A stretch of DNA of 60,179 nt from an uncultured delta proteobacterium (GCA_963728565.1 CAVSLC010000017.1:1-60179); one strand, 5' to 3'; shown: positions 10-5,580, numbered from the stretch's first letter. The notes: generated from the letters alone by a model not told the origin. Numbers and translations are program-made.

Positions 10-2145
<2,136 letters not shown>

Positions 2146-2213
2146 TCATCCCTTATCCCATGGATGACCTTTGCACATGAAGGTAGGACGATCCTTACCT
2201 CTGCTGGCGGCTC

Positions 2214-2251
2214 CGTACTCCCGTTATCGCAGCAACGATAACGGGAGTACG
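2214..2251. terminator. Perfect 16-bp hairpin between convergent genes; probable bidirectional terminator or REP-like element
   Basis: CGTACTCCCGTTATCG-cagcaa-CGATAACGGGAGTACG. Confidence 0.6.
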
Positions 2252-2293
2252 TTCAAAGCCTTGAAATAAACGCGGCGGGTAATCACGACTAAG

Positions 2294-3119
2294 CTAGTTT
2301 GGCGGTCGTGTTGCGGATCTCAAGTAGTCAACTGGCTTGCGTGCAAAAAAGTTCACCCCCTGCACGTAAAGATCTATTGATAATTTGGCTTTGGCGGAGG
2401 TGCCTTCGTAACAATCGAAGCGCTCGACGATCCTGCCGTCGGCGAAACCAATTTGAGCACACAGCTGGTAAAGCTCCGCCTCCGGCAGAGCCCCGCCGAT
2501 TCAGGCGGCCCACAGATCGACATCGCTGCGCGCCGCCAGCGACAGCTCTCGCTGCACGACGACATCGGCCAGATAGAAGCGGCCGCCGGGACGCAGTACA
2601 CGATAGATCTCGCCAAACGAGCGAAGCTTGTCGGCGGATCAGATTGAGCACGCCGTTGGAGATAACGACATCGATGCTGTCGCTATCGACCGGCAGCTCT
2701 TCGGCCATGCCGCGCCGAATTTCAATGTTTTCCCAGAGGCCGGCTTTCACGGCGGCGCGCTTGGCGCGCTCGATCATGGCCGGCGTCATGTCGACGCCGA
2801 TGGCGCGACCTGTCGGGCCGGTTCGTCGCGCCGCCAGGAGTAAGTCCATGCCGGCGCCGCAGCCGACATCCAGGATCGTTTCTCCAGGCTCGATCGGCCC
2901 AATTCTCTGGGGATTGCCGACGCCGGCAAACGCTGCGGTGGAGTCCTCGGGAATTAACGCCAGTTCATGCGCATCATACCCCAGCGTTTGTGCGGCGTAG
3001 TGCGAGCCCCGATGAAAATGAAAGTTTGCTCCTGGCTCACGCGCCACCCGGTCGTACTCCGCTCGCACGAGCTGGCGCAACTTATCGACATTGAAGCCTA
3101 CCGGACATGTGGTAGCCAC
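2294..3119 (-). CDS. ArsM/AS3MT-like class I SAM methyltransferase; probable selenoprotein (UGA at 2503-2501) with one extra base near 2638
   Basis: LDVGCGAGMD and IGVDMTPAM SAM motifs, then DVVISNGVLNL. Removing one base gives DKLRSFGEIYRVLRPGGRFYLADVVVQRELSLAARSDVDLWAA-UGA-IGGALPEAELYQLCAQIGFADGRIVERFDCYEGT...VNFFARK to TAG at 2296-2294. Confidence 0.85.
2470..2494 (-). promoter_or_regulatory. Candidate bacterial SECIS element
   Basis: mRNA reads UGA-AUCGGC-GGGGCUCUGCC-GGA-GGCGGAGCUUU: a 10-11 bp stem with a small G-led apical loop beginning about 18 nt after the UGA. Confidence 0.75.
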
Positions 3120-3264
3120 GTGCTTATCTCCTTTCCGGGTTCGTGATCCATATTATTGCTTTGCCGATCCGCACGGGTCTCTCGCGGAGCGTAACCATAC
3201 GAAATGGCCGTGTAGATCAGCGCAAGCGCCAGCAGTAAAAATTCTTCGACGATCATGGTCGTGC

Positions 3265-3921
3265 TCATACAATGTCAGGCGGATGCCTGGAATTGGTTGA
3301 TTTTTTCGATGCCAAAGAGCTTCTTTTTCTGATTAGCTTCGATGCGCCTGGCTTTCGCAGCATCGGAAACAACGGCGGCGACGAGCCGACCTGAACTGTG
3401 CCGAGCAGCTCAAAGCCGTGCCGCTCATACAGCCGGAGGCTCTTAAGGCTCGTTGATTCCAGGTAAGCGAGTTTACCGTCTGCATCGCAGCGCGCCAACG
3501 CATGTTGCAGCAACGCCGAGCCATATCCTTTACCTTGTTGCTCCGGATCGACGCCGATCATGGGCAGATACCAGTGCGGCTCGGCCGGATGGTTACCGTC
3601 CATCTGTTCGAACAGCGCGAAGACGCCCGGCTGATCGCGCTCGGGAACGCTATGCCGCAGCAGCGTAAAGAGCGCGTCGTCGTCGGGATGGATACCCGGT
3701 GGGAGCCAGAGCGCCGCGGCTGAATAGCCGTCCACAAAATCCGCGCTTCGATGCTCGAAGGCAGCGCCGGCAAAGGCTTTGACGAAGCTGGGAAGATATT
3801 CCCAGTAATGCTGTGAATCAGGATACATCCAGCGTGCCACCGGGTCGGCGCTAAAGGCTCTCACTATGGCGCTGACGGCGGCATCCTGTTCGGCTGTTCC
3901 GACATTTTTGATCGTAATCAT
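3265..3921 (-). CDS. GNAT-family N-acetyltransferase
   Basis: AALWLPPG, HWYLPMIGVDPEQQGKGYGSALL (motif A), AYLES, LYERHGF. Start placed at ATG 3921 behind a GGAGAG RBS. Confidence 0.9.
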   Translation of the reverse strand: MITIKNVGTAEQDAAVSAIVRAFSADPVARWMYPDSQHYWEYLPSFVKAFAGAAFEHRSADFVDGYSAAALWLPPGIHPDDDALFTLLRHSVPERDQPGVFALFEQMDGNHPAEPHWYLPMIGVDPEQQGKGYGSALLQHALARCDADGKLAYLESTSLKSLRLYERHGFELLGTVQVGSSPPLFPMLRKPGASKLIRKRSSLASKKSTNSRHPPDIV

Positions 3922-4045
3922 TGCTTCTCTCCGTTTGGAATTGACGGACACTACGAAGGACAAGAAGCGCACCAGTTCTAGAGCTTCCCTCAGCGCTTGT
4001 TCCTTTCTGCGTCATGTGCTTCGTAGTGTAATCGTAAATACCCTT

Positions 4046-4618
4046 TCAACTTTCGACCTCGAGCTTGGCGTCGAGCCGCACCGGCTGCGAAACATTGAAG
4101 TAGTTCGGCGAGGTCTTAATTACGTTCTCATGGATCTCGCGAAACTGCTCCGGTGTGCCGTTGCCGGCGATGTGCACCACGTACTGGAGCGATTCATACC
4201 CGGCCTTGACTCTCGGGTCGATGCCAAGAAATCCGCGCAAGTCGAGCTGGCCGGTTGTCTCGATTTCGAGCTTAGTCAAAGTGATTCCATTGACCGCCGC
4301 GCCCGCCACATAGCCGACGGTGATGCAGGCGTTGAGCGCCGCCATCAGCAGCTCCTGCGGATTGGCAGAGGTGTTCTCGCCTAATAGCTCGAGCGGCTCG
4401 TCCGCGTTGATTGTGAAGCGACGTTTGATCTCCTTGCCGCCGAGCTTGTAGGATTCGACAGCCGTTTGCGAGCGGGTTTGTCCTTTCCAGCCGGTCTTGA
4501 CCTTGAATTCAACGATCCCTGTTGACGGATCCTTCTTCACCTCGTCAATGACGCCATGCAAGGCATCGACATCGAGCCCGTTCACAGTACCGATTTTTTT
4601 TGCTTCAAGTGCAGACAT
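4046..4618 (-). CDS. OsmC/Ohr-like protein with a single Cys
   Basis: ADEPLELLGENTSANPQELLMAALNAC, G.LDLRGFLG; the second-Cys position reads TSPN. Confidence 0.9.
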   Translation of the reverse strand: MSALEAKKIGTVNGLDVDALHGVIDEVKKDPSTGIVEFKVKTGWKGQTRSQTAVESYKLGGKEIKRRFTINADEPLELLGENTSANPQELLMAALNACITVGYVAGAAVNGITLTKLEIETTGQLDLRGFLGIDPRVKAGYESLQYVVHIAGNGTPEQFREIHENVIKTSPNYFNVSQPVRLDAKLEVES

Positions 4619-4668: not shown

Positions 4669-5580
4669 TTAGCAGAACGCCGGGGCCATAGCCTCAATCT
4701 GCTGTTTTGCCTCCGGCTTGATCGCCTCCACTGTAGCCAGGAAGTTCGGGTGGGTCATGCCCGTGCCTAGATACGTCCAGCGCATTCCCTTGAGCACCGC
4801 GTCTTTGACCTGCTCGCGCTCGCCCTTGGACAGGTTTCTCCCCGTTGCCTGGACGAAACTCTCCACGTCAAATTCAGCCTGCTGCCCGATCCCCTGGTCG
4901 ATAAACGCGCCGATCTCGCCGTACTCTTGAAAGGCCTGGTCGATCTCCTTAGCTGTCGAGCGCGCCACGATCTCCTCGACCATCAGCGTGTCGAGCTTGG
5001 TGTGCTGCGACTCCTCCAACCAGTGGTGCTTGAGCAGGCTCTTGAACTGCGGGTCGAGATCCTGGCTGTCCCGCACCCCTTCGATGTAGTGGCGCAAGGT
5101 GATCCACTCGATGTGCAGAATCGCGATGCCGGCCCCCAGCGGGCTATGCGACAGCACGAAGCGCTTGACGTCTTCAGCCGGGCCGATGAATTCACACTTG
5201 CTGCCGAAGCCTTCCTCGAACTCCTGCTTGAAGCGCTTGAACAGGTGGATGTGCTTGGCCTCTTCGCCGGCAAACTGCAGCAGCGCGCGCACGCGGTAGT
5301 CGTCGCCGGAAAGCTGCGGCCGCGCATGATCGACCACATAGGGAAGAATGAACTCTTCGACCAGGCCGAACATGGACAGATACTCGTGGCCGCGGATCTG
5401 ATTGAGTGTCAGTTGCTCTTCGGCCGTGAGAAACGACAGCTGCTTTACCTGGGCCAAGGACTCGGGCATGAACGGCTTATCAAAGTCGAGCTTCTTGTCA
5501 CCGCCGATTAGATCCTCCACTCTCCAACCGATTCGCTCCGATGCCGCCAGTGCCGTCTGATACGAGTAATTGTGTTGCAT
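4669..5580 (-). CDS. Ferritin-like (AurF-like) diiron-carboxylate protein
   Basis: Paired E...ExxH motifs: VEEF, GEEAKH, HIEW, LEESQH; GGAGA RBS. Confidence 0.8.
   Translation of the reverse strand: MQHNYSYQTALAASERIGWRVEDLIGGDKKLDFDKPFMPESLAQVKQLSFLTAEEQLTLNQIRGHEYLSMFGLVEEFILPYVVDHARPQLSGDDYRVRALLQFAGEEAKHIHLFKRFKQEFEEGFGSKCEFIGPAEDVKRFVLSHSPLGAGIAILHIEWITLRHYIEGVRDSQDLDPQFKSLLKHHWLEESQHTKLDTLMVEEIVARSTAKEIDQAFQEYGEIGAFIDQGIGQQAEFDVESFVQATGRNLSKGEREQVKDAVLKGMRWTYLGTGMTHPNFLATVEAIKPEAKQQIEAMAPAFC

Follow-up and report, generated by a model that had tools for sequence, protein, structure and literature searches.

A probable single-selenocysteine methyltransferase of the ArsM type encoded by an uncultured delta proteobacterium

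Does an in-frame UGA codon end a methyltransferase, or does it encode selenocysteine (Sec)? This question is raised by a gene on the minus strand of a contig from a soil bacterium, an uncultured delta proteobacterium (GCA_963728565.1, CAVSLC010000017.1:1-60179); the whole stretch of 60,179 nucleotides (nt) that was analysed is referred to here as the window. A first-pass annotation had proposed a hidden selenoprotein at this locus, an ArsM-like methyltransferase with Sec at the conserved cysteine. Our work supports this proposal by the homologues at the UGA column, the conservation past the UGA, a hairpin that is linked to TGA, and the Sec machinery of the genome. Since this combination is the usual hallmark by which comparative work recognises bacterial selenoprotein genes, the gene is very probably a genuine one, with a place in the ArsM-like methyltransferase family. 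It is just as probable that codon 206 (UGA) would be decoded as Sec by SelB and tRNA-Sec, directed by a hairpin with a GGA loop. The argument turns on the following features:

2294..3119, minus strand: predicted selenoprotein gene for an ArsM-like methyltransferase dependent on S-adenosylmethionine (SAM); GTG start at 3119..3117, TAG stop at 2296..2294
2501..2503, minus strand: in-frame UGA, residue 206, in a UxxG motif (U-I-G-G); column of CmArsM Cys224
2473..2491, minus strand: conserved hairpin core of the selenocysteine insertion sequence (SECIS) type, GCUCUGCC-GGA-GGCGGAGC; loop at 2481..2483, stem in the window reaching 2470..2494
2640..2640, no strand: single frame-shifting extra base, private to this assembly according to the orthologue alignment

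If the extra base at 2640 is skipped and both the frame break and the TGA are read through, the gene comprises 274 codons. From the GTG at 3119, the first frame reads MATTCPVGF...VISNGVLNL and is then lost. After the break, the protein continues in the +1 frame with SADKLRSF..., passes through SADKLRSFGEIYRVLRPGGRFYLADVVVQRELSLAARSDVDLWAA to the TGA at 2503..2501, and goes on with IGGALPEAELYQL...; reading this frame confirms the claim that 68 codons stay open past the TGA, down to the TAG at 2294. The one-base correction that had been placed near 2638 is indeed needed, and the extra base lies at 2640. A methyltransferase frame with an in-frame TGA at the ArsM cysteine column is thus present as had been described: the TGA at 2503..2501 (local context DLWAA-TGA-IGGALPEAELY) falls on Cys224 of CmArsM.

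The column occupied by the UGA carries TGA or Cys in most homologues. Among the orthologues from related genomes (L013-L023, eleven loci from eleven genomes with 71-92% DNA identity, L016 being from an unpublished genome), ten have TGA at this column and the eleventh, from genome G020, has TCA (Ser). TGA is also found in 23 of the best 80 genome loci, with one genome taken per GTDB species, and three further genome loci (L045-L047) carry Cys. In the best 80 metagenome loci, at least 43 have TGA (40 parsed by pattern, 3 by eye), 15 have Cys and one has TCA, with 21 of the 80 not parsed at the Sec column. At the protein level, 54 of the 120 matches listed have Cys at the column; the Cys homologues are proteins of 261-268 amino acids (aa) from Gammaproteobacteria, Thermodesulfobacteriota and others. 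Moreover, the 56 codons that follow the UGA, from IGGALPEAELY...IVERFDCYEGTSAKAKLSKDLYVQGVNFFARKP down to NFFARKP, are conserved, and only the tail past ARKP is variable. The alignment of homologues thus gives what the selenoprotein proposal predicted, i.e. TGA or Cys at the column and strong conservation beyond it.

The same records allow a simpler view, according to which the UGA is an ordinary stop, the product a truncated methyltransferase of 205 aa, and the downstream open frame a relic. Gene callers do finish the protein at the UGA, 51 of the 120 protein matches listed end exactly there (at about 205 aa), and the NCBI name is simply "methyltransferase domain-containing protein". However, a relic is hard to reconcile with 56 post-UGA codons that are kept at the protein level across genomes with 72-93% identity in DNA and also in distant clades, and this part of the protein aligns with the C-terminal region of the solved ArsM structures and of the Cys homologues. 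Finally, a co-varying hairpin goes with TGA only. We therefore regard an ordinary stop as exceedingly improbable.

Bacterial SECIS elements are stem-loops that follow closely on the 3' side of the UGA and have a G in their small apical loop. In the window, a stem of 11 base pairs (bp) with a GGA loop is formed, and the loop begins 17 nt after the UGA, in good agreement with the 10-11 bp and about 18 nt given before. Only the inner 8 bp of this stem are conserved in relatives: the conserved stem starts 9 nt after the UGA, and nt 13-20, counted from the U of the UGA, pair with nt 24-31. The hairpin is formed in all 24 TGA genes (the window and the 23 genome loci) with an invariant GGA loop, and 97.4% of the cells in this 24-row alignment are paired, as compared to 32-54% in controls with a slid register. 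Two compensatory pairs were observed, a change from G-C to C-G in two Myxococcales-type genes and from C-G to U-A in five genes of a distant clade. The covariation score of the hairpin is 0.231 versus 0.155 for shuffles, and none of 500 shuffles reaches it. The metagenomes provide the same picture: of the 40 parsed TGA rows, 35 have all eight pairs and five have seven, whereas the 15 Cys rows have only two to six of the eight. A third compensatory variant is present in two metagenome contigs (L143 and L145), in which the stem reads GCUCUGCA/UGCAGAGC and the loop is GUC rather than GGA; these genes read DLWTG-U-IAGALQ. The hairpin is absent from all three closest Cys homologues. In addition, when synonymous codon entropy was compared in 187 windows along the gene in 14 close orthologues, the minimum fell on the stem-loop codons 210-216 (0.43 versus a mean of 1.12 bits). 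The proposed SECIS-like hairpin near the UGA thus accompanies TGA and is missing from the close Cys forms. A search of Rfam returned no family matching positions 2000..3400 at E-values up to 1. As a side observation, in the orthologous locus L020 (536-604) the stem is preserved through three changes and the loop reads AGA.

Decoding of UGA as Sec requires a dedicated machinery, and all its components that were looked for (selA, selB, selD and tRNA-Sec) are present in the genome. The selA, selB and selD genes lie side by side on contig C28:35212-39495 (L001, L003 and L010), all of them above the curated cut-offs, and ARAGORN identified a tRNA-SeC with the anticodon tca on C25:176054-176148. The selD gene itself has one in-frame TGA in the motif AAG-U-AAK, which makes it a second selenoprotein gene of this genome. 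One might still argue that the UGA is read through as another amino acid, either as a reassigned codon or by a near-cognate tRNA for Trp, Cys, Arg or Gly, and the fact that Gly, Ser, Arg, Leu and Trp are tolerated at the column in relatives would be in line with this idea. A reassignment of TGA throughout the genome is not apparent, since the SelA and SelB genes have no internal stops. Moreover, the complete Sec machinery, as well as a hairpin that matches the bacterial SECIS in its position and in its small G-containing loop, speak for Sec, and the pairing of Cys and TGA at one column is the classic signature of Sec, a criterion described in PMC13188914. Read-through with an amino acid other than Sec is thus highly improbable, if marginally less so than an ordinary stop.

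Several observations weigh against the selenoprotein reading. First, the column is not uniform: 15 of the 120 protein matches listed have G, S, R, L or W there. Genome G020 has Ser at this position yet retains SelA, and one metagenome locus (L125) has TCA (Ser) in spite of a perfect hairpin. Second, the folding energy of the hairpin is by itself unremarkable (z = -1.66, with 12 of 200 shuffles folding as well), and the alignment of the nearest clade shows no compensatory change in the stem, covariation being seen only across deeper clades. Third, the gene is frameshifted in the assembly as given. Finally, none of the genes in the neighbourhood points to a particular substrate. As to the hairpin, the comparative evidence makes it far more than chance despite the weak folding energy.

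The varied column deserves a closer look. In a FastTree phylogeny of 119 rows, calculated from the N-terminal 205 columns, a clade of 50 rows that have only Cys is split with full support from the clade of the window protein, which comprises 69 rows. At the Sec column this latter clade has U in 52 rows, G in 6, S and R in 3 each, L and C in 2 each, and W in 1. These replacements (G, S, R, L, W and C) are exactly the sense codons that can be reached from TGA by a single mutation. The column is replaced in 17 of the 69 rows, a share that is overstated because the match list ranks full-length proteins above truncated ones, and at least 14 state changes occur over the whole tree. At the DNA level, a replacement is found in one of 24 assessable close metagenome loci and in one of the 11 related genomes. 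Because the Ser-bearing genome G020 keeps SelA and the Ser-bearing metagenome locus keeps a perfect hairpin, the residue at this column is not indispensable for the function, whatever it may be, that keeps these genes open, and the variation argues against an indispensable catalytic Sec. We also noted that the replacements seen in the proteins P0004-P0036 occur in genes that are otherwise intact.

The frameshift raises a question of its own: is the extra base an error, or has this copy of the gene died? The window reads AATCT[G]ATCC, versus AATCT-ATCC in all 11 orthologues, which run NLSADK or NLSPDK uninterrupted across position 2640. The extra base is also missing from short-read contigs of three other soil metagenomes (runs X1, X3 and X4), of which the X1 contig spans position 2640 with 145 nt and has one other difference to the window; the cover by run X2 is not usable at either 2640 or the TGA. 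A public protein of 205 aa (P0012) has an intact frame with two substitutions relative to the window reading. Examination of reads at the frame break had been suggested before, and the contigs from the three runs indeed lack the insertion. For the TGA, a base-call error had been considered as well; the contigs of other samples show no listed difference there, and its status as variant-free rests on the orthologues.

The sequence next to the gene points in the same direction. The window starts at base 1 of contig C17. A gene for a large-subunit (HPII-type) catalase occupies positions 1-2145 on the plus strand; it is spread over at least three frames, with about eight small indels between 1205 and 1806. 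This gene is uninterrupted in a single frame in G001, a genome with 92% identity, but broken in the window. All coding indels relative to G001 are located within the first 2.7 kb of the contig, and the GNAT and OsmC genes that lie beyond have none. The damage to the catalase gene suggests either a faulty consensus where C17 begins or decay of the gene itself. Since the window starts at the first base of C17 and all these indels fall within its first 2.7 kb, a faulty consensus at the contig end is the most likely cause, and we conclude that the insertion at 2640 is probably an assembly or consensus error. The competing explanation accepts the selenoprotein family as real but takes this copy as a recent pseudogene, with the extra base genuine in the strain and the gene dead. 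The assembly does carry the frameshift, and the adjoining catalase gene, broken by several 1-base indels as compared to the intact G001 copy, could reflect local gene decay. However, the orthologues, the contigs of the three runs and the 205-aa protein all lack the extra base, the two halves of the gene on either side of the break show no other damage, and the clustering of indels, which spares the GNAT and OsmC genes, is typical of a poor consensus at a contig end. A dead gene is thus unlikely. In practice, this contig is unreliable as regards indels over its first few kilobases.

To which family does the predicted selenoprotein belong? Pfam assigns it to class I methyltransferase domains (Methyltransf_31/11/25), and the closest solved sequences are CmArsM (E = 1e-29), CrArsM and human AS3MT, with E-values from 1e-29 to 1e-22. 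A structure predicted by AlphaFold2 for the orthologue L032 (93% identical), with Cys in place of the TGA codon and an alignment of 35 sequences, has a mean predicted local distance difference test (pLDDT) score of 91.5 and a predicted template modelling (pTM) score of 0.91; its best fold match in the PDB is CmArsM (4fr0), with a TM-score of 0.75 and a root-mean-square deviation of 2.3 over 226 columns. Residues 1-10 have a pLDDT of only 68. In the alignment with CmArsM, Cys72 is replaced by Val (FYGCGS versus FAGVGN) and Cys174 by Gly (SNCVCNLS versus SNGVLNLS), which bears out the earlier remark that two ArsM cysteine motifs are substituted, and Cys224 corresponds to the putative Sec (LYGECLGGAL versus LWAA-U-IGGAL).

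The protein and its relatives form a subfamily that is marked by an N-terminal MAxxCPxGF with Cys5, by GVGNP or GTGNP, by SNGVxNL, and by [DE]LWxx[U/C]I[GA]GAL; most members also have FDC[YF] with Cys236. All 23 genome loci and all 40 parsed metagenome loci with TGA belong to this subfamily. None of the 50 canonical ArsM loci (GCGNP, SNCVINL and the third Cys) among the best 80 genome loci has TGA, but this sample was drawn with patterns from the window protein and says little on canonical ArsM in general. Close relatives are labelled Candidatus Binatia, with Deltaproteobacteria or Syntrophobacter as older labels, and distant Sec forms come from metagenome-assembled genomes (MAGs) labelled Myxococcales, Gemmatimonadales, Anaerolineales, Acidobacteriota, Longimicrobiales and Verrucomicrobiia. 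As far as can be judged from the predicted proteins, the subfamily keeps only the Cys224 position of ArsM, which is Sec in the soil Binatia and in members of several further phyla, and Cys in the rest. Of the 13 assessable proteins with neither Sec nor Cys at position 206, 3 have lost Cys5; the corresponding figures are 0 of 51 for the Sec forms and 2 of 53 for the Cys forms, counts in which relatedness is uncontrolled.

Selenoproteins of the ArsM type are not new; the UxxG type has been in print since 2007 and is covered by NCBIfam models. The 2026 review PMC13188914, with reference to Fomenko et al. 2007, includes "Arsenite methyltransferase, NF008823, UxxG, 1 Sec" in its table as a family with experimental verification, as well as the methyltransferase/UXPK-star, ArsM/DUF2284 and ArsM/AhpD families, all of the UxxG type, from Haft & Tolstoy 2025. 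For "arsenite S-adenosylmethyltransferase", eight Sec and 245 Cys sequences are given in the Global Ocean Sampling (GOS) selenoproteome study (PMC2398784). The window protein has much in common with the selenoprotein of NF008823 (PRK11873), i.e. the ArsM type, a single Sec, the UxxG motif and the pairing of Sec with a cysteine of the Cys224/Cys206 type. It lacks the equivalents of Cys72 and Cys174, and its score of 226 bits is below the cut-off of 263; four relatives reach 203-230 bits with this model. The members of NF047649 found in three genomes from the same phylum (L198-L200) resemble the window protein in reading SNGVFNL, without Cys174, and W[YF]Q-U-IGGA. They differ in having FCGVGNP and a C-terminal U-x-P-K-stop tail that provides a second Sec. 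The window protein reads FAGVGNP, contains only the one Sec, is variable beyond NFFARKP, and has the N-terminal MAxxCP cysteine instead; it scores 203 bits versus a cut-off of 460. Since the UXPK-star members read SNGV together with Sec at UxxG, the design of a methyltransferase without Cys174 but with Sec at UxxG is already curated. The proteins of NF041537 (ArsM/AhpD) and NF041536 (ArsM/DUF2284) share the methyltransferase domain with Sec at UxxG but are fusions to a second redox domain with a further Sec. The window protein has a single domain, with an OsmC-like protein encoded separately nearby; it lacks the fused AhpD domain with CxxU, and its scores with the two fusion models are 210 bits versus a cut-off of 510 (NF041537) and 200 versus 575. 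An orthologue, two other Sec groups and one Cys form are likewise below every curated NCBIfam cut-off tested. What is uncurated would thus be a predicted single-domain, single-Sec group with an N-terminal cysteine. Apart from this group, the same phylum has ArsM-like proteins with SNGV, U-[IE]-GGA, Sec at UxxG and a fused AhpD-like part with CE[PL]U (L202, L205 and L206), and many further ArsM-like matches contain one to three in-frame TGAs.

With canonical ArsM and AS3MT proteins (CmArsM 4fr0/4kw7, human AS3MT 8xt7) the window protein shares the SAM-binding core and the Cys224 position. The canonical enzymes have Cys174 and also Cys72 (in GCGNP, for the first methylation), whereas the window protein has Gly and Val at these positions. 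According to PMC6138428 and PMC6950371, the metalloid site is the Cys174-Cys224 pair, and the minimal BlArsM requires both residues. As the Cys174 equivalent is lost while the metalloid site needs this pair, the window protein falls outside the arsenite methyltransferases, and judged from its predicted residues a canonical arsenite methylation by this protein is doubtful. No canonical ArsM was found above the cut-off elsewhere in this genome, which is 80.6% complete, so that this is no proof of absence. A role of Sec as the main nucleophile, possibly on a substrate other than arsenite, as had been suggested for this locus, would fit the missing equivalents of Cys72 and Cys174. The H2S/methanethiol S-methyltransferases MddH and MddM were considered as a lead and set aside without sequence comparison; the available excerpts of the literature describe UbiE-family enzymes and make no mention of ArsM, arsenite or selenium.

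These distinctions matter for the records. Dozens of copies from soil metagenomes and MAGs are stored as "methyltransferase domain-containing proteins" of 205 aa, cut off at the Sec codon, and a dedicated family model would mend these truncated entries, given that the three Sec groups and the Cys form tested are all below the NCBIfam cut-offs. Because the subfamily is without two of the three defining cysteines, environmental surveys that identify "arsM" by homology may count genes with other functions.

The genomic neighbourhood was inspected for indications of a function. Upstream of the methyltransferase gene, the window contains the following genes:

3098..3268, minus strand: small open reading frame of 56 aa with one hydrophobic stretch (…EEFLLLALALIYTAISYG…), directly upstream and overlapping the methyltransferase start
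3265..3972, minus strand: GNAT acetyltransferase gene, immediately upstream; neighbour kept in 10 loci
4046..4618, minus strand: gene for an OsmC-like protein; neighbour conserved in 7 loci, distant Sec clades among them
4669..5580, minus strand: gene for a 303-aa protein that is weakly AurF-like (diiron; below the Pfam cut-off); conserved neighbour in 11 loci

Upstream peptides similar to the small one, of about 40-56 aa, are encoded in L013, L016 and L017, and the small reading frame has no Pfam family. Two loci of a distant Sec clade place the OsmC-like gene 132-147 nt upstream on the same strand. The order in the Binatia is sigma-54 activator (GAF-PAS-AAA-HTH_8), weakly AurF-like protein, BBE-type flavin adenine dinucleotide (FAD) oxidase, SnoaL-like protein, OsmC-like protein, GNAT, methyltransferase and EamA. 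The EamA exporter gene is found in 8 loci, 50-186 nt downstream of the methyltransferase where it does not overlap the match, and genes for a MAPEG protein and a convergent catalase frequently lie near the methyltransferase in Binatia. Taken together, the neighbourhood has the appearance of a cluster for detoxification or stress response; ars genes were not found among the conserved neighbours of the methyltransferase. A conserved 215-aa protein (MDSREFAKTLEKQVADF…) that has no Pfam match is encoded at L033:7435-8082 and at five other loci, 1.2-2.6 kb downstream of the methyltransferase.

How might the enzyme work? (i) The selenolate of Sec206 would hold a soft substrate, such as a metalloid, a chalcogenide, or a small thiol or selenol, beside the methyl group of SAM. 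(ii) Alternatively, Sec206 would act in a reductive half-cycle, a role that the disulfide-cascade model of ArsM gives to the cysteines. In this variant, an oxidised intermediate would be resolved via an Se-S bond with Cys5, located on a flexible N-terminal arm, or with Cys236, and a partner, for example the OsmC-like protein encoded nearby, would then reduce this bond again. The arm with Cys5 is of low confidence in the model and presumably mobile. The methylated product might finally leave the cell through the adjacent EamA-type exporter found in relatives. This mechanism as a whole, with the selenolate either holding the substrate or serving in redox resolution, is offered tentatively and is somewhat more likely to be wrong than right. 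Within it, we lean towards a redox partnership: in curated relatives, the same SNGV/UxxG methyltransferase is joined to an AhpD domain or to a tail with a second Sec, the OsmC-like protein is a neighbour in 7 loci, two of them from a distant Sec clade, and Cys5 is lost in proteins that have lost Sec or Cys at position 206.

A broader and even more speculative idea, which we consider possible but rather unlikely, is that the GVGNP/SNGV proteins are an enzyme family of their own, in which a lone Sec or Cys and an N-terminal cysteine arm would replace the ArsM triad to act on a soft substrate other than arsenic, e.g. selenide, tellurite, sulfide, small thiols or other reactive species. This joint idea would also place the enzyme in a sigma-54-controlled stress cluster of soil Binatia and other phyla, together with the OsmC-like protein, GNAT, the EamA exporter, the BBE-type FAD oxidase and catalase. 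If it were true, the repeated occurrence of Gly, Ser, Arg, Leu or Trp in place of Sec in close relatives would mark a second function that has no need for a chalcogen. The natural series of Sec, Cys and other residues at one active-site position offers a way to probe the role of the chalcogen in enzymes with the ArsM fold. A possible parallel to the replaced Sec column is provided by SPS1, in which Sec has shifted to Thr, Arg, Gly or Leu.

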